Shown here piece by piece: positions 2,184-31,344 of a stretch of 31,482 bases of DNA. A program made the position numbers and the translations under genes. Source of the stretch: Cyanobacteria bacterium P01_D01_bin.156 (GTDB lineage: Bacteria; Cyanobacteriota; Cyanobacteriia; Phormidesmidales; Phormidesmidaceae). Every line of letters starts with the position of its first letter. Positions within the stretch are counted from its first letter, which is position 1. The stretch spans positions 1 through 31,482 of the forward strand of contig JBCCQQ010000069.1 in NCBI GenBank assembly GCA_039024555.1, read 5' to 3'. The notes under the pieces are model-generated. The model was not told the origin of the DNA. It was given only the letters and a program-made list of their open reading frames with translations, and did not search any database.

Positions 2184-3466
2184 CAGTTTGTTTCTTCCTT
2201 AGGGAGGGTATCGGTTGCTTGGTTGTTTTCTCCTTCATAACCTAGGGCTTTAGAAGCCAGGCCGACCCAGATGTCATCTTCTGGTCGATTGATTTTACTT
2301 AGGCAGGTTTCCCACTCGGTTTTAGCAGCCTGTTCTTGTTGCTGAGTTTCATATAACTGGGCCAGTAAACAGTGGGCATCGGGTCGGGGCTCCTTTAGCT
2401 CTGTCTCTAACTGGATAGCTCGCTTGAGTTCTCCTTCTGCAGACACAAACCGTTCCTGACGCAGCCAGGCCCAGCCAAGATTTTTACGTAAGCCGTATTC
2501 TAATTCTTTATCTTCAGTATCGCGATTTGTGTCTTTTAAGGCTGTGTTTAACAAGATGGCAGCTGACTCGTCATCCTCGTCTTCTAAAATCTGTAACCGG
2601 GCTAAATTATTGACCGAGGCTAAGTAGCCTGCCTGGATCGCTTTGGCATATTCTGCCTTAGCTTTGCCAAACTCTCGTAGATCTTCATAGGTGACGGCTA
2701 AGTCATGGTTTGCTTCTGGAAAATCTGGCTGTAGTCGCAGAGCGCGCTGAAAGCTGGCATGGGCATTGGTAAGTTGTTTATCTTGATAATATTGTCGTTG
2801 GCCCACAGCATGGTAACGCTGGGCAGCCCAGGGTAACCCCACGGCATGGCCCCAAAAGAGCAACAACACAATTCCCAGGGCTAATAAACAGCGCACTAAG
2901 GGCCTGTAGCGTGGTTTTGCCTTAGAAAGTACATAGGTATCAACAATTGTTTGCCCCACTTTGGTGAGTACGCCCCCGGTGGCAAACAGGGCTAGGGCCG
3001 CTGGAACAATGGTGCCAATAGAACTCCAGAGGCCAGGTGCGCCATCAAAAAATCGGGTGGCAATATCTTTGGCAAAGGCCAGGGCAATGGTGAGTAGGGC
3101 AATGGTGACCCCACCCCAGAACCAGCCTAGTATGGGTTTGATTTCAGGCTTTTTGGGGTGCCACCACCAGTGATGCGCCGGGGGATTAACGCTTTTGCGC
3201 CAGGTGGAAAGTGTATGGAGGCGGAGCAGTCGGTCGTTCCATTGACCCAATAAAGCATCATCCTCGGATAGGGTGATCCATTTTTCGGCGGTCAGGGTTT
3301 TAGATGCAGGCTGTTGCGCTAGATGATCGATCAGGGCCTGGATGCGATCGCGTTCTCGCAACATTTCCAGTACCGATTCATCCGACCAGTTTTTGGGCTC
3401 TTTGAGGGCCCGTACCTGCCGGTGATAGTCCGCCAGTGCCGTTTGTAGGATATCCGTTGCCTGCAT
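2183..3466 (-). CDS. Membrane protein with about 3 TM helices and C-terminal TPR repeats
   Basis: 427 aa; helical N-domain ending PPAHHWWWH, three hydrophobic stretches, then TPR motifs (ANHDLAVTYEDL, SVNNLARL, KNLGWAWL, AHCLLAQLYE). Confidence 0.85.
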   Translation of the reverse strand: MQATDILQTALADYHRQVRALKEPKNWSDESVLEMLRERDRIQALIDHLAQQPASKTLTAEKWITLSEDDALLGQWNDRLLRLHTLSTWRKSVNPPAHHWWWHPKKPEIKPILGWFWGGVTIALLTIALAFAKDIATRFFDGAPGLWSSIGTIVPAALALFATGGVLTKVGQTIVDTYVLSKAKPRYRPLVRCLLALGIVLLLFWGHAVGLPWAAQRYHAVGQRQYYQDKQLTNAHASFQRALRLQPDFPEANHDLAVTYEDLREFGKAKAEYAKAIQAGYLASVNNLARLQILEDEDDESAAILLNTALKDTNRDTEDKELEYGLRKNLGWAWLRQERFVSAEGELKRAIQLETELKEPRPDAHCLLAQLYETQQQEQAAKTEWETCLSKINRPEDDIWVGLASKALGYEGENNQATDTLPKEETN

Positions 3467-3496
3467 TGCTTCCCTTCTCAGCCCACACGTCAGCTA

Positions 3497-5761
3497 TTAT
3501 GATGCGTCTCCAGGCACAATATCGACAAACAAGGAGAGCACAGCCACCTGGTCCACATCTAGTAGCCGTGTCCCCTTGGCAGTATTAACACTACCGCGAC
3601 GGGTATCCATGGCCCCAAAGATATCATTCATGGCGTCTACATTGGTGGAGATGGCCCCGCGACTGAGAGAGCTATTCACCCTGGGAGCCTTTAGACGCAG
3701 GGTTTTCAATGGACTAACTAAGGATTGTGGACTGACTAACACCAGCAGCTCAGTAATACCCAAAGGTTCCGCACCCCTGAGTTTAGTGGACCAGGAACCC
3801 CGACGGGAAATAACATCAGCGTCTTCATTATCCGTAGTTAGGGGAAATAACACATTGACCTCACCCGCCGCATCAATGACCACAATGCCAAAGTGTAGAT
3901 CTTGTGTTTCATTGTTGTGGACGGTGACCTCAATTTCATTACCGATAGCAATTTGCTCAATGCCCCGCTCAAACTGTTGAGGAATAAAGATCGCTTCTGG
4001 GTCGCCGCGGCGAGTTGTAGTGCCGCTGCGAGATCCCAGATGCTCCACCTCCACACTGACGTCAAGGTGAGAGGTTTGTTGATTTACCATTAGGGCTAGC
4101 ATTCTACCCAGATAAAGGCTGACAACCCTGGCTTTCAAACGACCCAGGGCATTCTCCATGGTCTCTCCTGAGTCTCCAAAGGAACCGACCAGCAGGGGCA
4201 CCTGGGCTGGGGAAAAAATGCCGATACTGCCAACAGTTTGTCGCAGGCGCGGATTAGTCTCTATTAGGGAGACTCGCTGGTCAATCTCTGCGGTGTAGCG
4301 CCCCAACAAAACATGGGCCATTTTACCGGGTTCGGCCACAAACACATCAAAATCAGATAGCGCCCCTAGATTATCCAGGACAATCTGTTGTTCCGTCGGG
4401 GTGAGGGTATCGTCTAAACCGATTTTGAGCGTAACCTGACTGGAGATGCCCCGTACCTTTTCCTGCAGCAGCTGGGATGATACATTCGCACCCCGAGTGG
4501 TACTGACCAAACGGCCCTGGGTAACCAATCCTTGGCGGGTACCGTCGATCTGTTGCACTTCTGCCAGTTCCTTGCCAGTTGTTTTATCAATGACTGAAAA
4601 GATCGCGCCCTGGTCAAAGGATTCTAACGACCATGGGTCTAGCCCACCTAGCCACAGGGTTACCTCATCATTGTTAGCTTTTTCACGCACAGCATCCAAG
4701 ATTAATGCTTCAGCAGGCTGAGATATGGGTTCAATGTGATAAATCGGTTTTTGGTTGACCACTGGATCATTCTCACGGGCCGGGTCGTAGACTGGCACCT
4801 GGGAATGTTCTGCTAACCGATTGGCACTGTTGCCCACCATGGGAATCGTTTCTGCCAGGGAATCTGTATTTTGCCAAAGGTGTTGGGTTAATAAATAGGT
4901 AAAGGCCCCAGCAGTAAAACCGTCAAAGCTGTAGTCTGCGGCAAGCTGGTTACGGCGGACGGCACCTACAAAAAAGCCCTGGCCCTTAGGGGCGGTGATG
5001 GCATCAGCAAACTGCTGGGCATTCCAGTCGAGGGTGTCGAGTAGCTGTCGCTGGTAGGTCCATTCGCTTTCTGGAATCTGACGCAGATTGCTAATGTCTT
5101 CTGTCGCATCTAAAGAAGCGTTTAAGGACCGCATTACGGCATTGCCGCGCTTACCGCCGCCAGCGTAGCAGCAGTCGAGCAAAAAGGTAACATTGTCGGT
5201 TTTTTGGGCTAGGGCTGCCCGCATCAATAGCAGGGTGTGGCCCATAATGTCTTGTTCTGGAGTGTCATCCGGGAAGGTTGCGATCGCAGTATTGTAAAGC
5301 GAGTTGCATTCGCCCAGATCGTCGATATCGATACAGGTGCGCTGAATCTGTGTAAGCAGTTGCTCCATACGGTCCCGCTCGCGAATCTTTTCTCCATGGC
5401 CAGAAAAGTGAAAGATAACCACGTCCCCTGGCCTAGCAGGCTCATAGAGATATTCGTTAAATGTCTCCCACACATTGCGACGAGACGCCTGCTCATTGCA
5501 CAGAATATGGATATCGCTATCTTTAAATCCAAACCGATGGATCAACAGTTGGCGCTGTAGTTCCACATCGTTGATCGGTCCCTCTAGGCGGTTGCTGCGA
5601 TAGTCGTTAATGCCCACCAACAAAGCTACCTTACGCGGTGTGGCTGCAGCCAGTACTTTGCCATAGCGAGTGGCCGAATGGGTTAGCCCCAGCTGACTCA
5701 GGCCAATGGCACCCAGGGCTCCGGCACTACCGTGTAAAAAATGACGACGGTTAAACGACAT
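3497..5761 (-). CDS. Caspase-family (peptidase C14, orthocaspase/metacaspase) protease with Tat-like signal and C-terminal DUF4384-like domain
   Basis: KVALLVGINDY...LEGPINDV, catalytic His in FHFSGHG and Cys in LLDCCYAGG. Start revised from 5833 to ATG 5761 because GAGGAGG lies just upstream and MSFNRRHFL is a twin-arginine motif. Confidence 0.92.
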   Translation of the reverse strand: MSFNRRHFLHGSAGALGAIGLSQLGLTHSATRYGKVLAAATPRKVALLVGINDYRSNRLEGPINDVELQRQLLIHRFGFKDSDIHILCNEQASRRNVWETFNEYLYEPARPGDVVIFHFSGHGEKIRERDRMEQLLTQIQRTCIDIDDLGECNSLYNTAIATFPDDTPEQDIMGHTLLLMRAALAQKTDNVTFLLDCCYAGGGKRGNAVMRSLNASLDATEDISNLRQIPESEWTYQRQLLDTLDWNAQQFADAITAPKGQGFFVGAVRRNQLAADYSFDGFTAGAFTYLLTQHLWQNTDSLAETIPMVGNSANRLAEHSQVPVYDPARENDPVVNQKPIYHIEPISQPAEALILDAVREKANNDEVTLWLGGLDPWSLESFDQGAIFSVIDKTTGKELAEVQQIDGTRQGLVTQGRLVSTTRGANVSSQLLQEKVRGISSQVTLKIGLDDTLTPTEQQIVLDNLGALSDFDVFVAEPGKMAHVLLGRYTAEIDQRVSLIETNPRLRQTVGSIGIFSPAQVPLLVGSFGDSGETMENALGRLKARVVSLYLGRMLALMVNQQTSHLDVSVEVEHLGSRSGTTTRRGDPEAIFIPQQFERGIEQIAIGNEIEVTVHNNETQDLHFGIVVIDAAGEVNVLFPLTTDNEDADVISRRGSWSTKLRGAEPLGITELLVLVSPQSLVSPLKTLRLKAPRVNSSLSRGAISTNVDAMNDIFGAMDTRRGSVNTAKGTRLLDVDQVAVLSLFVDIVPGDAS

Positions 5762-9059: not shown

Positions 9060-10052
9060 TTAACCGTGAACCTTACCGTCGGGCATAGTAGTACCCACTA
9101 ACTTCGCATTGGCCAAATTTGCACTACTCAGCTCGGCCTTAAATAAAATAGCCTCGGTTAGATTAGCAGAACCTAAGTTCGTACGCCCTAAATACGCATG
9201 GGTCAGGTCTGCCTGGGTCAAATCAGCACCGCTGAGGTTGGCCCTACTCAGGTCAGACCGCAACAGACGGGAATCGGTCATCACAATTTGAAACAGCTGA
9301 GCACCGCACAGCTTACTATCCGTAAAGTTAACGCCCCTAAGGTCTGCACCGGTAAAATCACACCCGGACAGATTGGCCCGTTGACCCCGAACACGGGTGA
9401 GGTCGGCATAGCGTAGGTTGGCCCCTTCTAATTGGGCATCTGCTAAGGAGGCACCCTGCAGATTAGCTCCACTGAGGTTGGCGTTTCGTAGGTCGGCCTC
9501 CTTTAAAAAGGCTTCGCTCAGATTGGCTCCACTCAAATCTACATTGGCTAAATCCGCACCTTTTAGGTTGGCTCCCCGCAAATCTACCTGGCGCAGATGG
9601 GCTCCCCGTAAAATTGTTTGCTCACTACGGAGCTCCTGCCGCAGGTTGGCCCCGCGCAGACAGGCCCCCGTCAGGTTGGCACCGCTCAAGTCAGCATTGC
9701 GCAAATCTGCATCGGCTAAGTTGACATCAAACAGATCGGCCAGGGTCAGGTTAGCCCCCCGTAAATCGGCTCCCTGTAAGCTGGCCCCATGCAGGTTTGC
9801 ATCGCTTAGGTTGGTATAGATCAGGTTTGCCTGATTGAGATTAACGCCGCTTAGGTTGGCACGGCTAAGATTCGCTTTTTGCAGATTTACCCGACTTAAA
9901 TAGGAAAACATCAGATCCGTGCGTTCCAGATCGGCCTTTGAAAAGTCGGCACCGATTAAATCGGACTTGATTAACCGTAATCCTGCTAAACAGACACCGC
10001 TAAAGTCTGTGCGCCCTTTGTTATACAACTTAAATAGTTCAGTACTATCCAT
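9060..10052 (-). CDS. Pentapeptide repeat protein
   Basis: 330 aa almost wholly A(D/N)LxX repeats, ending TMPDGKVH; overlaps the upstream cyclase stop by 8 bp. Confidence 0.97.
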
Positions 10053-11838
10053 AGGGGGTGGACCTCGCGGATAGGGTGGCAGAAACGGCTGTCCGCCCAG
10101 GGGTTAGCTGAACGGGTGCTGGGGGCGATGCCGTTGGCGGATAGTACGGCTTGATCGCGTTTAAGATGGCGCTGACCACCGGCTCATGCTCGTTAGTATC
10201 TTCTAGACAGTGCACGATAATTGAAAGTTTGCTCTCTAAATCCTGAAACGATGGGCAATACTCAAAAACTTCTCGTAAAAAGTCTTCTAAAGTTTTACTC
10301 CGGAGCATGGACCATTCCTGAGCGCTGCCGGTAAATGGGCTGTACACCGTAGAGTGCAGCAAAATCTTTGCCCGTAGCGGATTGCAGTATTTAATAATGT
10401 CTAACCTGAGTTCAAACAGGTCGGCTCGATCTCTTACGCGGTTGCTATCGCCTACAGCGGGTCTTTCTATGGTTTTGCCTGAAAAGGCCACCGTATTGTC
10501 AGGATGGGTGCCCTCTGGCAGAGCTGCAAAACAGGTTTCGGGGCTGCTATCGGTATCGTTTGCATTGGACAGTCCCGGTGTAGACATGGGGATCATCTCA
10601 GGGCGGGCATTGTATAGGGAATGAAATGCCTTAAAGATAGTGTTGACGATTTTGGTATATTTCGCTTTTTGGTTTAGGTGGTGCAGCAGATGACGGAGCC
10701 GAAACTTTAAGTCCTTGGGACTGGGGGTTAGATGGTAAAGCTGCTCAACTAAAATCGCTGTGTCTGTTTGTTCAATTTTTTGAATGTCACTTTCCCAAAC
10801 CTTGTGGCACAGGCAGTATAAAACTTTTTTAATGCGCAGAATTTGGGCATCCTGTTCGAGTTCATCGGCTACTTGCTGGTAGCGATCGCGACCGGTAACT
10901 GCATCAGAGCCACTGGACTGTTCGGCAACCGGTGGTTTGGCTGCCTGCTCTGAGTAAAGGGGCGTAACAGCTTGTAGAATGACCTGTGCTAACTGGGAGT
11001 AAATCTCCTTATGGTTTAGGGTGGCAACAATCCGGTAGAGACTTGCCCGACAATGTTCTATCGATGGATTACGCTGCATCAATGTGGCAATTAAATGCTG
11101 CAGCGTAAACTGATCGAGAACCGTGGTTTCGTTTTCCCATAGGTTTTGACAGGTCCCAAAAATGAGTTTTTTGATACGCACCTGTTCCGGATGATCGCTG
11201 AGAACCTGTATGGCCTGTTCTAAAGGGCTATCAAAAACATAACTTTGAACGCCTTCAGCAAAAAAGGGACGAGTCATCTCTACATCAGAGATATCCAGCT
11301 CCAATGCAGGGCGTAGCTGATAGGCCGGTACGGGCTCTTGAATATTTTTGAGATTGAGGGGACCTAAAAAGGTGGCATCCAGTTCCAGACGACTTTTGAC
11401 CACATCGTAAACCACTTGGGAAACACAGATTTCCCCTGGAGATGCAAAGCTTTCTAAGCGGGCGGCGATGTTGACGCCATTTCCCATTACATCAGACTTA
11501 TTAATGTAGACATCCCCCAGATGGATGCCAATACGGTGGGCAAAACTATCTCGTTTGAGGTCGCTCCGCAGCTTTTTTTGAATATTTAGGGCACAGGCCA
11601 CGGCTTGAGCGGCACTAAAAAAACACATCAACAGTCCGTCACCCGTTGACTTTAGCACTTGTCCCTTAAAGACTTTGCACAGCCCAGAAATCTGCGTAAG
11701 ATCCCGGTTAATAATCGCCAGTGCCTGTTCCTCATTGGCCGACATCTGAGCACTAAACCCCACGGCATCAGTGACCACAATGGCGGCAAGTACCCGCTGG
11801 TTCAGATTTTGAAGCGATGGCTGCTGCGCCCCTTCCAT
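10045..11838 (-). CDS. Soluble class III adenylate/guanylate cyclase with three C-terminal helical repeats
   Basis: [40 protein letters not shown]: both metal Asp, Lys/Asp specificity pair and Asn/Arg all intact. Start ATG 11838 preferred over TTG 11856 (uncertain). Confidence 0.9.
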
Positions 11839-12239
11839 AAAAAACGTGACTGACAAGACTACCTGATATTAAGACTACCCCGGCTGCCCGGGGTCATCAG
11901 CAAATCGTGAATTAATGAATATGGAATTTACAGTAGACTTTATCGCCCCTTTTTATCTCTTCAGACCAAAAAAGATTGATTTATCGTTCAGCTGCTACTC
12001 CGTCGTCATATGTGGATAGCTTGCATCACCTGATGTACGGATAGTTTAGCACTTTAACCTAAAGTACGTACACGGTAGGTCGCTGTGTCCCTGATGACAG
12101 CAGTATTTTTATTTGCAAAAAGATTTTTTTCGTTGCTAGCTGAAGTGATAAAACAATTGAACCTAAGTTCAGACGGTATTGTATAGAGTCTTGATTGTTG
12201 TTTCCAAAAAACTGTTTTTTGCCAAAGAGATTGGTGTTG

Positions 12240-27191: not shown

Positions 27192-27668
27192 ATGACCAAA
27201 AACCTTCGATTACGTAAAACCAAGTTGGATCCTATCGATATACAACTGATCCATGCGTTAACGAGGGACTCAAGAACCTCCATTGCAGAACTCGCTAGGT
27301 TGCTCAGTATGTCTGCACCAAGCATTTCTGAACGGGTGCAGCGTTTGGAAGAGTCCGGCATTATTGAACGCTTTACGGTGGAGATTGAGCCCAAACTGCT
27401 TGGCTATTCCCTAGGGTTTTATATTCGGATTCGTCCCTTTCCCGGTCAGCAGCCCCATGTAATAGCTCTGATTACCGAAATAGAACAAATCGTTGAATGC
27501 GATCGCATTACGGGTGATGACTGTTTTATTGCAAAGGTGTTTGTAAAATCTGCCAGCGATCTTGAAAAAATACTCGATCAGCTGATTCCCTACGCCCAAA
27601 CAAACACCTCTATGATTCAGTCATCTTTGGTGAAGCGCCGACTACCGCCCATAGAGGAAATCAGGTAA
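27192..27668 (+). CDS. Lrp/AsnC family transcriptional regulator
   Basis: LDPIDIQLI...SIAELARLLSMSAPSISERVQRLEESGII, CDRITGDD; divergent from the cupin operon. Confidence 0.95.
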   Translation: MTKNLRLRKTKLDPIDIQLIHALTRDSRTSIAELARLLSMSAPSISERVQRLEESGIIERFTVEIEPKLLGYSLGFYIRIRPFPGQQPHVIALITEIEQIVECDRITGDDCFIAKVFVKSASDLEKILDQLIPYAQTNTSMIQSSLVKRRLPPIEEIR

Positions 27669-27799: not shown

Positions 27800-29554
27800 A
27801 TGACTGCCCTTGAGACTGTCCGCCTACATACTCGTCGGCAGGGCCTACCCATCGGCCTTAAAATATTTGGCCTAACTGCCAGCCTGCTGGGGCTAATGGT
27901 TATGGTGGTAGGGGTCTCGACTCGACGCCTAGGGCAGGTGAACGAAGAGATTATTAATCTGGCGGACTACGCGCTTCCCATTACTGATCGAGTAGCCCAA
28001 ATTGATGTGCACGTCCTGGAACAGGAGTTGCACTTTGAGCGGGTACAAACACTGTATGAAATTGAACCTCTAGATGAGGAGCGTCTGCAGTCGGAGCTGG
28101 CAGGGTTTATGGAACGGGGGCAGCAGGTTGATGAAGAAATTGAAACTGCGATCGCACTAGTCCAAACCGCCATTGATGAGGCGACGATTCCCGAAGTCAA
28201 GGCTAAATGGCAGAGCATTGCTCCCAGATTAATGGCCATTGAAACGGAACACCAATTATTTCAAACCCACACGAGTGAGCTTTTAGAGCTGTTAGCTGCC
28301 GGAGATTTAGAGTCCGCCCATCAGCTTGAAGAAACGTTGGTTGCCCAGGAAGTAAACTTCAACCAATCGGTTAATGACGTTTTCCTAGAGCTGGAAAACT
28401 TTACCGTCAAAGCGGCCCAATCTGGACAGTATCACCAGCAAGTGGTGCAAACCCTTAGTGCATCCATAGCGGGTTTAGCCACCCTAGCCGGTTTGGCCTA
28501 CGCCACCCTGGTTACCCTAGGGTTAGTAAGGCCAGTACGCTCCCTTAAAGCCGGTACTACCGCCGTGCAAACCGGTGATCTGGATGTTCATTTAGATACT
28601 TCCAGTCGAGATGAAGTGGGCACCCTGGCCCGAGCTTTTAACACGATGGTGGACGAGCTCAGACTCAAGGCCCGTCTAGAAGAGACCTTTGGCAAATATG
28701 TCGATCCGCGGATTGTAAAATCCCTTGTCCAGAGCAGTAACACCGCTGCTACTGACGGAGAGCGTCAGATTATGACCGTCTTTTTTGCCCAGGTGCAAGG
28801 TATGGAAACCGGCTTAGCACCCTTAGCACCCACCGATCAAGAACGCATCATCAATGACTACTTAAGCCTGATGTCGGCCCCCATCAGTAACCACGATGGG
28901 GTGATCGACAAGTTTATTGGCACCATGATTATGGGCTTTTGGGGCCCTCCCTTTACCGATGAAGATAACCATGCCCGTCTAGCCTGTGAAGCGGCCTTGG
29001 CAAGTCTCGATCAGCTGACCCAGCTGCAACCCAAACTGGCCCAGCTAGCCATGGCCCAAACCCAAAATCTCCACATTGGTCTCGCCACTGGGCCATTGGT
29101 GGTAGGCAATATGGGCTCAGAGGCTGCTAAGGCCTACACCGTAATGGGAGACACAGTAAATATTGCTTCCCGCCTGAAAGGGGTTAGCCAGCAGTACGGA
29201 GCCACCATTGTTATTAACGAGGCCACCCAACAACAGGTGGCGGATGTTATGGCTACCCGAGAACTGGACCTGATTCGAGTGGTGGGGAAAGAAGACGCCA
29301 TCCACATTTATGAGTTATTGGGGCGCAAAGATGCTCAAACGGCTGCGGATGAGGGTGCGATCGCAGCCTTTTCCCAGGGGCTCACGGCTTATCGACAGCA
29401 GGACTGGGAGCAGGCTCGTCAGCACTTTACCCAATGCCTGGACCAAAAACCTGGCGATCGGCCCACACTGCTCTACCTAGACCGAATTACCCAGCTAGAA
29501 GCAAATCCACCCGACACGAACTGGGATGGGGTATGGCAACTAACCCGGAAATAA
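27800..29554 (+). CDS. Membrane class III adenylate cyclase subunit (TM-helical sensor-TM-HAMP-cyclase), lacking both metal-binding Asp (C2/beta-like)
   Basis: HAMP (DEVGTLARAFNTM), transducer element TFGKYVDPRIV, cyclase with FFAQVQG, DKFIGTMIM, YTVMGDTVNIASRL. Confidence 0.92.
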   Translation: MTALETVRLHTRRQGLPIGLKIFGLTASLLGLMVMVVGVSTRRLGQVNEEIINLADYALPITDRVAQIDVHVLEQELHFERVQTLYEIEPLDEERLQSELAGFMERGQQVDEEIETAIALVQTAIDEATIPEVKAKWQSIAPRLMAIETEHQLFQTHTSELLELLAAGDLESAHQLEETLVAQEVNFNQSVNDVFLELENFTVKAAQSGQYHQQVVQTLSASIAGLATLAGLAYATLVTLGLVRPVRSLKAGTTAVQTGDLDVHLDTSSRDEVGTLARAFNTMVDELRLKARLEETFGKYVDPRIVKSLVQSSNTAATDGERQIMTVFFAQVQGMETGLAPLAPTDQERIINDYLSLMSAPISNHDGVIDKFIGTMIMGFWGPPFTDEDNHARLACEAALASLDQLTQLQPKLAQLAMAQTQNLHIGLATGPLVVGNMGSEAAKAYTVMGDTVNIASRLKGVSQQYGATIVINEATQQQVADVMATRELDLIRVVGKEDAIHIYELLGRKDAQTAADEGAIAAFSQGLTAYRQQDWEQARQHFTQCLDQKPGDRPTLLYLDRITQLEANPPDTNWDGVWQLTRK

Positions 29555-29619
29555 TCTTCTCTAAAAAACTCTTTCTCTATAATTAGTCATCCTAAATTCT
29601 CTCTTAACTAACGCTTACC

Positions 29620-31344
29620 ATGCAGCCTCGTTTTTCTCTCTCCATTGGCACTAAGATTTTTGGTATCGCCAGCAGCATGTTAGGTCTGCTATTGGGGGTG
29701 GCCTATCTCAACTATGTGCGCATTCGTCAGGTTAATCACGAGCTGATTGATATTGCCTACTATCTGGCACCTCTAACAGAGGATATCGCCAATATCAACG
29801 TCCATGTGCTTGAAGAAGAGATTCACTTTGAGCGAATGATCCGGTATTACACCATTGACAATAATAACCAAGCTAATGGTAACAATAATGCTAAAGCCAG
29901 CGATGAAGAAGAGGCTTTTAAGGAACGGGGCGAACGGGTTAAACAGGACATTGCCACTGCCATTGCCCTAGCCGACAAAGCGGCTGAGTCCGCCTATAGT
30001 CCTGAGGATATCCTTGAAATTGCTCGCCTTCGTCCACTGCTGGAAGTATTGGCATCGGAGCATCAAAATCTCCACCACTACAGTCTAGATATTATTGAAC
30101 GTCTAAAGGCTAGTGACCCCGAGGCCGCTAATCTGTTGGCTACTCAAATTACCGACTTTAAAGACGACTTTGACCATCGCATTCAAGATATCTTATTTGA
30201 ACTAACCACCTTCATTGAACAATCTGCTCACCACGCCCAGGTTACTGAACAACGAACACTGACTCTGAGCTGGTGGTTAACCGGCCTGGCTAGCGGTATC
30301 GGTTTACTATTTTCCGCTTGGGTTACCGCTGGGCTTGTACGTCCGGTACGACGATTGGTCAGCAATACGGAGAAAGTCGAACAAGGGGATCTGACTGTGG
30401 AAGTTCCCATCTACTCTGGTGATGAGATTGGTCAGCTGACAGAATCCTTTAACCACATGGTGAGCAAGATTCGTGAAAAGGAACAGCTCAAAGCCACCTT
30501 TGGCCAATATGTGGACCCCCGCATTGTTGACACATTGTTGGGACAGCCTAATTCAACCGAAGGCAGTCAACGACAGATGATGACGCTGTTCTTTTCGGAC
30601 ATGGCCAACTTTAGTAAAATTAGCGAACTGCTTACACCAACGGGGCTAGTCACCCTGATCAACCGATACTTTACCCTTGCTGCCGCTCCCATCAAGGAGC
30701 ACCACGGGGTGATTAATCAGTTTGTTGGGGATGCGGTCAGTGCATTTTGGGCTCCTCCCTTTGTAGACTCGGCAGACCATGCCAAACTAGCCTGCTACGC
30801 CGCCCTAGAACAGTTTGACCAACTCACTAAACTACGTCGCAGTTTGCCAGACTTACTAGGTATTCGAAAAGGTCTGCCAGAGATTAATATCCGCATTGGC
30901 TTAGCCTCAGGCGAGGCCCTAGCAGGGAACATTGGCTCTGAGCAGTCTAAGTCTTATACGGTATTGGGGCCAGTGACCCGGCTGGCGGAAAAACTAGAAA
31001 ATTTGAACAAAGTTTATGGAACTCGTATTTTGATGACAGCTACAACCAGGCAGCTGGCAGGCGATACAATCGAAGTGAGAGAAATTGACCAGATTGCATT
31101 ATCTGGAACGCCCGAGCCTATTTACGAACTACTGGGTATTGTCGGTAGCACAGACAATCGATTACTTATGTTGCGAGACTGCTTTCAGACAGCGTTAGAG
31201 ATTTATCGCGGCAGGTCTGGAGAGGAGGCCATCTCAAGATTTGAGGCATGTTTAGCCATAATCCCCAATGATGGTCCTTCTAAATATTATCTCGACCTAA
31301 TAACGTCAAAGAGTTCTTTTCTATCTAGCTCCAGAGCCACTTAG
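29620..31344 (+). CDS. Membrane class III adenylate cyclase subunit (same architecture), retaining metal Asp but lacking Lys/Asn/Arg (C1/alpha-like)
   Basis: HAMP (DEIGQLTESFNHM), TFGQYVDPRIV, cyclase with FFSDMANFS, NQFVGDAV, YTVLGPVTRLAEKL. Confidence 0.92.
   Translation: MQPRFSLSIGTKIFGIASSMLGLLLGVAYLNYVRIRQVNHELIDIAYYLAPLTEDIANINVHVLEEEIHFERMIRYYTIDNNNQANGNNNAKASDEEEAFKERGERVKQDIATAIALADKAAESAYSPEDILEIARLRPLLEVLASEHQNLHHYSLDIIERLKASDPEAANLLATQITDFKDDFDHRIQDILFELTTFIEQSAHHAQVTEQRTLTLSWWLTGLASGIGLLFSAWVTAGLVRPVRRLVSNTEKVEQGDLTVEVPIYSGDEIGQLTESFNHMVSKIREKEQLKATFGQYVDPRIVDTLLGQPNSTEGSQRQMMTLFFSDMANFSKISELLTPTGLVTLINRYFTLAAAPIKEHHGVINQFVGDAVSAFWAPPFVDSADHAKLACYAALEQFDQLTKLRRSLPDLLGIRKGLPEINIRIGLASGEALAGNIGSEQSKSYTVLGPVTRLAEKLENLNKVYGTRILMTATTRQLAGDTIEVREIDQIALSGTPEPIYELLGIVGSTDNRLLMLRDCFQTALEIYRGRSGEEAISRFEACLAIIPNDGPSKYYLDLITSKSSFLSSSRAT

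Follow-up and report, generated by a model that had tools for sequence, protein, structure and literature searches.

What do two neighboring cyclase genes do when neither of them encodes a complete active site? The question is raised by a 31,482-nt contig (JBCCQQ010000069.1, our C69; hereafter the window, meaning the whole stretch that was analyzed) from the 6.6-Mb genome of Cyanobacteria bacterium P01_D01_bin.156 (assembly GCA_039024555.1). Here two tandem genes, which we call A and B, each encode a membrane class III cyclase that has lost part of its catalytic residues. An original prediction, made from the letters of the window, held that the two losses are complementary and that the products work only together. 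Our computational analysis indicates that A and B probably pair as the subunits of an obligate heterodimeric membrane adenylate cyclase with one composite adenosine triphosphate (ATP) site, and we infer that the two proteins heterodimerize physically, that cyclic adenosine monophosphate (cAMP) is the product and that neither homodimer is active.

A and B carry complementary halves of one active site

The two genes are adjacent paralogs with a 65-bp gap, and their products are 39% identical across 563 residues (E 3e-128). In both proteins two hydrophobic spans, located by Kyte-Doolittle analysis, enclose about 180 residues and are followed by a HAMP domain and a cyclase domain, which is the layout of a HAMP-linked membrane receptor cyclase. 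Open reading frames, Pfam matches and hydropathy thus agree with the arrangement originally described (transmembrane span, sensor, transmembrane span, HAMP, cyclase). The cyclase matches of A (45.3 bits) and B (46.1 bits) to PF00211 exceed the curated cut-off of 21.9, and the HAMP matches (57 and 59 bits) exceed the cut-off of 25.

We verified the active-site residues by direct indexing and by aligning A and B with HMMER to four class III cyclases of solved structure (3r5g, 1wc0, 2w01 and 6fht), which they match at E values of 1e-20 to 1e-24. Every residue named in the original prediction held. At the first metal Asp, A has Q331 (FFAQVQG) and B has D327; at the second, A has T375 (FIGTMIM) and B has D371, with the 44-residue interval between the two metal positions intact in both proteins. 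The phosphate Arg is H425 in A (NLHIG) and R425 in B (NIRIG). The adenine Lys is K371 in A and Q367 in B, the ribose Asn is N454 in A and R454 in B, and the transition-state Arg is R458 in A and K458 in B. Both proteins have T447 at the Thr position. A Lys after Gly is present in A (K497, in VVGKE) and absent from B (LSGT); this conserved Lys stands after the Gly (V-G-K) in the subfamily, including its members with a complete site, and before it (xKG) in 3r5g and 1wc0. The residue offsets of 44, 4, 7 and 4 match those of CyaC (D1017, K1057, D1061, T1139, N1146 and R1150).

Neither A nor B has the residue set of a self-sufficient homodimer, which is both Asp, Lys, Asn and Arg in one chain. Their residue sets are complementary and jointly complete exactly one site, and the same split was found in 18 + 7 full-length pairs from the two scans described below. 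A Lys/Thr adenine pair, with Lys in the β2-3 hairpin and, seven residues ahead of the Asn, Thr in place of Asp, is the class IIIb signature. K371 and T447 of A align with the Lys and Thr of CyaC (1wc0), and B has Q367 with T447, so that only A qualifies.

A-types, as we term the relatives with the pattern of A, also do not have a four-residue segment near residues 417-421 of A, before the phosphate-Arg strand, where B-types and complete-site proteins have the consensus K-G-L-P. Judged from the alignments, this appears to be a further loss in the metal/phosphate half of A.

The same reciprocal pattern recurs in relatives

Of 8000 candidates scored in a database search, 2310 were relatives at E <= 1e-20, and residue patterns were read in the best 120. 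Three patterns were seen. In the A-type pattern Thr (in a few cases Pro or Ser) stands in place of the second metal Asp, and Lys, Asn, Arg and GK are retained; the first metal Asp is usually retained but variable, and His, Gln or another residue often takes the place of the phosphate Arg. In the B-type pattern Asp, Asp and Arg are retained and Asn, Arg and GK are lost. The replacements in B-types are not fixed: the Asn position holds Q, E, R, H, G, K, N or A, and the Arg position Q, Y, K, T, E, D, H, A, V, I or R. The complete pattern has DKDRTNR plus GK in one chain. Going by source names, the closest relatives are from marine filamentous cyanobacteria, with loci 85% identical in Leptolyngbya sp. 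PCC 7375, where both members of the pair are 85-88% identical to A and B, and in Adonisia turfae. The A/B split was present in every paired relative that we examined, and because the identical split recurs in this way, the reciprocal loss in A and B is not a matter of chance.

A-type and B-type genes stand side by side

We scanned one genome per species with the A-type alignment and, in reverse, metagenome contigs with the B-type alignment, taking 80 loci from each. The genome scan contained 25 A-type loci, 22 of which have an adjacent B-type gene on the same strand, and the metagenome scan contained 11 B-type loci, with an adjacent A-type gene in 8. All complete-site loci were solitary (55/55 and 69/69, or 124/124 among the 160 loci of both scans). 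These counts are not fully independent, as at least one contig was seen in both scans (L022 and L089) and the G042 contig is L014. The adjacent reciprocal pairs that the original prediction proposed to look for are therefore found, and the pattern is not one of random degeneration.

Of the 22 partners in the genome scan, 18 are full-length, 3 are partial or split, and one is a 151-aa stub where its contig ends. As for the loci without a partner, two A-types in the genome scan abut a contig end and one (L021) is unlinked, and the three B-type loci in the metagenome scan are cut or on short contigs and not assessable, so that 5/6 misses over both scans are at the end of a contig or on a short one. 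Spacers of full-length pairs measure -113 to +110 nt in 25/26 and 475 nt in one. The order is A then B in cyanobacteria except at L017 (L017:3040-6485, B then A), and B then A at the Desulfococcaceae, Spirochaetes, Planctomycetota, Scalinduaceae and Latescibacterota loci.

Within the genus of the window, adjacent pairs were present in three genomes (G002, G009 and G021), and a lone B-type gene was found at a contig end in G006. Among the other same-genus genomes searched, 16/21 have other cyclases and no full-length match to A or B. In a phylum sample of 401 genomes, full-length matches occurred only in G000 and G042, which is an undercount, as 3 candidates were scored per genome.

One origin and shared inheritance

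A maximum-likelihood tree (quick search, LG+G4) was built from 69 proteins: 27 A-types, 21 B-types and 21 complete-site proteins, the last being every third full-length gene from the 55 genome-scan loci plus five named ones. A-types form one clade (support of 100 by the Shimodaira-Hasegawa-like approximate likelihood ratio test) and B-types another (99), and the two clades are sisters (88). The complete-site proteins fall outside A+B, except for the long-branch L034 beside the A+B group; the tree is midpoint rooted, and "outside" depends on that root. By this topology, the A/B split has a single origin.

The A and B subtrees show matching groupings. Across 20 pairs, the pairwise identities of A partners and B partners correlate at r = 0.97, a value reached by 0/2000 label permutations, which shows co-inheritance as a unit but would be expected for any genes inherited together and is not proof of contact. 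It is fairly likely that one ancient duplication gave rise to a dedicated two-gene heterodimeric adenylate cyclase that has since passed as a unit, by inheritance or transfer, through Cyanobacteriota, Thermodesulfobacteriota, Spirochaetota, Planctomycetota and Latescibacterota, and that would be a prokaryotic counterpart of mammalian C1/C2 of independent origin.

Selection appears to preserve one pocket and not its mirror

We compared A and B with two orthologs of 85-88% identity, for which the synonymous rate dS is 0.8-1.1, high but unsaturated; more distant comparisons were saturated. The ratio of nonsynonymous to synonymous rates (dN/dS) was 0.09 for A and 0.08-0.09 for B, and about 0.05 for the cyclase domains alone. 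Purifying selection, for which the original prediction had proposed a test, thus acts on A and B alike.

Mean column entropy per segment was then taken as the measure of constraint. In β1-α1, the metal half with the first Asp, it is 1.54 in A-types, 0.62 in B-types and 0.93 in complete-site proteins. In β5-α4, the Thr/Asn/Arg half, the values are 0.34, 1.21 and 0.29 in the same order, and in β7-8, with GK, they are 0.70, 1.83 and 0.90. HAMP, linker, periplasmic and tail regions have similar entropy in A and B. Constraint is thus reciprocally relaxed, with B holding the metal half and A holding the base/transition-state half. This would be the signature expected if only the pocket made of the B metal half and the A base half is catalytically constrained.

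The original prediction further suggested that the second, degenerate pocket might bind an allosteric ligand. This part is weakened: both halves of that pocket are the least conserved catalytic segments, and a conserved allosteric ligand site is disfavored because the mirror pocket is least constrained in both domains. Its sole fixed element is the Thr at the second metal position, conserved in 93% of A-types.

The A and B clades have different fixed residues at only six positions (Q213/E210, K299/Q296, T375/D371, M438/I438, S457/E457 and K460/E460). Before the cyclase domain, in TFG[K/Q]YVDPR, the Lys is invariant in A-types (K299, 28694-28696) and is Gln in B-types (Q296, 30505-30507). After the transition-state Arg, A-types have Lys (K460), and B-types (E460) and complete-site proteins have Glu. 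K299/Q296 and K460/E460 are candidate determinants of hetero-specific pairing. We also considered a charge-complementary heterodimer code in the linker and HAMP and rejected it, since six differing positions are too few and K460 vs E460 is suggestive only.

A predicted complex and a proposed mechanism

We predicted the complex of the two cyclase domains from our own A-type and B-type alignments. The AB model scored 0.72, and the best control 0.00. The 0.72 mark was reached by 116/157 solved complexes and by 2/215 mismatched pairs, counts that are rough since our own alignments were used. Model runs share at least 93% of contacts, and the predicted local distance difference test (pLDDT) value of the partner is at least 78. 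The modelled interface is the canonical class III one, in which the α1 helix of one chain lies against the β4-5 arm of the other.

The central proposal of the original prediction was that no single chain is complete and that A and B would together form one ATP site plus a degenerate pocket. Split, adjacency, origin, selection, constraint and the complex model all agree with it. In the mechanism that we propose, each chain would insert by two membrane spans, and pairing of the periplasmic helical regions, the HAMP domains and the linker helices would join A with B, so that the cyclase domains form a head-to-tail class III dimer. The complete pocket would take D327 and D371 (metal) and R425 (phosphate) from B, and K371 (adenine), T447, N454 (ribose), R458 (transition state) and K497 (VVGK) from A, and would turn ATP into cAMP, a product expected because of the Lys/Thr adenine pair. 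The mirror pocket, with Q331, T375 and H425 of A and Q367, R454 and K458 of B, would be catalytically dead. As an AA dimer would be without metal ligands and a BB dimer without transition-state residues, output would require both gene products and would be set by a mixed sensor. The original prediction also proposed that two different sensor domains could act as an AND gate, which finds no support here: being paralogous helical modules, the periplasmic domains of A and B would more probably combine into a single mixed sensor than act as separate inputs. Since the sensor and HAMP modules would also be heteromeric, the complex could act as an asymmetric receptor, with a single ligand-binding half-site governing the one catalytic site.

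Several observations weigh against this interpretation, in addition to the limit on the inheritance correlation given above. The score of the AB model may reflect memory of solved class III homodimers, and the modelling does not discriminate AB from AA or BB. The genome holds 14 cyclase-domain matches, and A or B may conceivably pair with other cyclases. The adenine Lys is gone through a one-residue deletion in the A-type of G021 and in 4/120 database proteins (P0082, P0097, P0098 and P0101), and in species whose A-type has no adenine Lys the composite site itself would be non-canonical. Most A-types retain the first metal Asp, though A of the window is without both, and AA dimers of the A-types that have it may possess residual non-canonical activity. 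One A-type, L021:3977-5716 from a Symploca sp. SIO1C2 metagenome-assembled genome, has no partner within the 4 kb flank on each side; a B-type protein, P0104, comes from the same assembly by source name and lies on a contig of different length, and this is the sole unlinked pair that we saw. Finally, the B partner at L017, in Spirulina sp. 06S082, is split over two overlapping frames (3040-4116 and 4010-4738), which reflects either a frameshift or a mistake in assembly; going by its name, the contig has 4x coverage.

Alternative explanations

Could A or B instead be a regulator that heterodimerizes promiscuously with other HAMP cyclases to tune or poison them, the A-B pair being one of several combinations? 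Several of the 14 cyclase-domain matches in the genome are 33-35% identical to the HAMP-cyclase part of A, and the conserved interfaces of class III cyclases make cross-pairing conceivable. However, the strict adjacency of the two genes, their single origin and the agreement of their subtrees speak for a dedicated pair, the pair is also present in phyla whose other cyclases differ, and the 16 same-genus genomes noted above have other cyclases without a full-length A or B. We regard this explanation as unlikely.

We consider it rather improbable that A and B are non-catalytic pseudo-cyclases, acting as sensors or scaffolds through protein contacts or through nucleotide binding without turnover, as homo- or heterodimers. 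The absence of a full residue set from either chain would fit such a role, as would the A-types that have also lost the adenine Lys. Yet decay would not hold two complementary halves so strictly: the Asn-to-Arg half of A (0.34 vs 0.29) and the metal half of B (0.62 vs 0.93) are as conserved as in complete-site proteins, or more so, the low dN/dS of the cyclase domains speaks against it, and the pair in the window jointly holds every canonical residue.

Least credible, and in our view very improbable, is that A and B are each active as a homodimer by non-canonical chemistry and are adjacent through mere tandem duplication with diverged sensors: the first Asp in most A-types, the invariant Thr at the second metal position and the Arg and Lys that B of the window has close to its missing Asn and Arg would accord with it, but A of the window is without either Asp, the B-type replacements at the Asn and Arg positions are unconserved, single mutants of Rv1625c at the equivalent positions are inactive (according to the available part of PMC4821796), and two such enzymes would not remain adjacent across several phyla while their complete-site relatives are always solitary.

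Organization of the locus

The features of the locus are collected in Table 1. We return here to the obligate heterodimer of A and B as the preferred interpretation and describe its genetic setting. The match to 4HB_MCP_1 in the N-terminal part of both proteins is weak (16.9 and 16.5 bits in A and B, below the cut-off of 27), and the sensor type is not established. The C-terminal TPR-like region was absent from the layout first described. It ends in PPxxDWDGVWxLTxK, a motif that occurs in A and in complete-site relatives and is lost from all B-types; within it (A residues 571-584), W575, G577, W579 and K584 are invariant in 33 A-types.

Table 1. Positions of the genes and domains in the window
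Feature	Position	Strand	Description
Gene A	27800..29554	+	584 aa; putative C2-like subunit
A first hydrophobic span, aa 16-41	27845..27922	+	Kyte-Doolittle scan
A predicted periplasmic helical sensor, aa 42-221	27923..28462	+	weak 4HB_MCP_1 match
A second hydrophobic span, aa 222-243	28463..28528	+	Kyte-Doolittle scan
A HAMP, aa 241-288	28520..28663	+	Pfam PF00672, 57 bits
A class III cyclase domain, aa 324-499	28769..29296	+	Pfam PF00211 (Guanylate_cyc), 45.3 bits; alignments to solved structures
A C-terminal TPR-like region, ending in PPxxDWDGVWxLTxK	29333..29551	+	weak Pfam TPR match
A C-terminal motif, aa 571-584	29510-29551	+	
A-B spacer	29555..29619	+	65 nt
Gene B	29620..31344	+	574 aa; putative C1-like subunit
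B first hydrophobic span, aa about 7-31	29638..29712	+	Kyte-Doolittle scan
B second hydrophobic span, aa 222-240	30283..30339	+	Kyte-Doolittle scan
B HAMP, aa 236-286	30325..30477	+	Pfam PF00672, 59 bits
B class III cyclase domain, aa 318-496	30571..31107	+	Pfam PF00211, 46.1 bits; alignments to solved structures
Lrp/AsnC-type regulator gene	27192-27668	+	131 nt upstream of A
Third cyclase gene	10045-11856	-	603 aa; class III domain at aa 24-179, 43.7 bits
Pentapeptide-repeat protein gene	9060-10052	-	330 aa

Judging from the short spacer and from gene overlap in some relatives, A and B are probably co-transcribed. A promoter/terminator scan found no terminator-like site between them; overall, it showed no excess over shuffled sequence of promoter-like sites (5 vs 5.5) or terminator-like sites (2 vs 4.2). 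A search of sequencing runs gave a single DNA run, which may be the source sample, and no RNA run. The Lrp/AsnC-type gene upstream of A does not appear in the open reading frame lists at the 85% identical loci, where a divergent 274-277 aa frame lies upstream instead. On the basis of these lists, the regulator is probably unrelated to the A-B pair, and the pair alone is conserved.

The window contains a third cyclase gene elsewhere, on the opposite strand. Its class III domain is N-terminal and is accompanied by about 420 residues without a Pfam match, and its 3′ end overlaps the start of the pentapeptide-repeat protein gene by 8 nt.

Relation to known cyclases and implications

In mammalian C1/C2 and in soluble guanylate cyclase α/β, one domain contributes both metal Asp together with the phosphate Arg, and the other the base Lys, Asn, Arg and Lys. 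The pair described here resembles these enzymes in having one active and one degenerate pocket, with B corresponding to C1 and A to C2 (compare the available portions of PMC8815786 and PMC4821796). It differs from them in that the subunits are separate bacterial genes encoding HAMP-linked class IIIb proteins (Lys/Thr), each with its own two-span membrane sensor, and in that, according to the tree, the A/B duplication is independent of the eukaryotic one. Unlike C1/C2, A/B has no conserved forskolin-like second pocket that is evident from the entropy values. The design thus appears to match that of C1/C2 and soluble guanylate cyclase α/β, and what would be new is a bacterial, two-gene, HAMP-linked class IIIb form of its own origin.

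An engineered precedent is provided by Rv1625c, the Cya of Mycobacterium tuberculosis, in which D300A and R376A are each inactive and co-expression restores activity (as reported in the part of PMC4821796 available). In these terms A is a natural equivalent of the D300 loss (T375) and B of the R376 loss (K458). However, native Rv1625c, a class IIIa enzyme anchored by six helices, forms a homodimer whose two sites are equal, and its split is man-made, whereas the A/B split is natural, conserved and distributed over two genes. The same architecture and length are found in the complete-site members of the subfamily (e.g., those at the loci L023-L084 of Thiobacillus denitrificans, Nitrospirales and alphaproteobacteria), which are 36-43% identical to A by tblastn and share its WDGVW motif. 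They differ in having all seven residues plus GK in one chain and in being always solitary; presumably they form ordinary homodimers and reflect the ancestral state.

Two further systems bear comparison. The chytrid NeoR with RGC1/2 is, like A/B, encoded by separate genes with a membrane sensor in each subunit, and is active only when co-expressed. It is eukaryotic, however, and RGC1 and RGC2 keep all catalytic residues, so that a split site does not explain their pairing (both points from the available sections of PMC8815786). Bacterial heterodimeric ATP-binding cassette exporters (TM287/288, BmrCD and PatAB), as far as the available sources describe them, are likewise adjacent paralogs with one consensus and one degenerate composite site; their fold and chemistry are unrelated, and the analogy is one of evolutionary logic alone.

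In the available text of three papers, bacterial class III cyclases are stated to homodimerize (PMC4821796, PMC9552081 and PMC4886424), and one of them calls this "a fundamental difference" from eukaryotic pseudo-heterodimers. Heterodimers are described as a feature of higher eukaryotes in the portion of PMC8815786 available. Our literature search found no natural bacterial heterodimeric class III cyclase, in agreement with the original prediction, which knew of no characterized two-gene bacterial example; older reviews beyond the search may hold such predictions.

If our interpretation is true, the A-B pair would be a natural exception to the stated homodimer rule for bacterial class III cyclases, and prokaryotes would have moved independently from a symmetric homodimer to an asymmetric enzyme with one site. 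The complete-site relatives, as a sister group, offer a ready comparison for reconstructing this transition. The pair would also provide a simple, genetically separable model of how a receptor is coupled to the single catalytic site of asymmetric cyclases. For annotators, it would serve as a warning that "degenerate" cyclase genes standing beside a paralog are likely subunits and not pseudo-enzymes.

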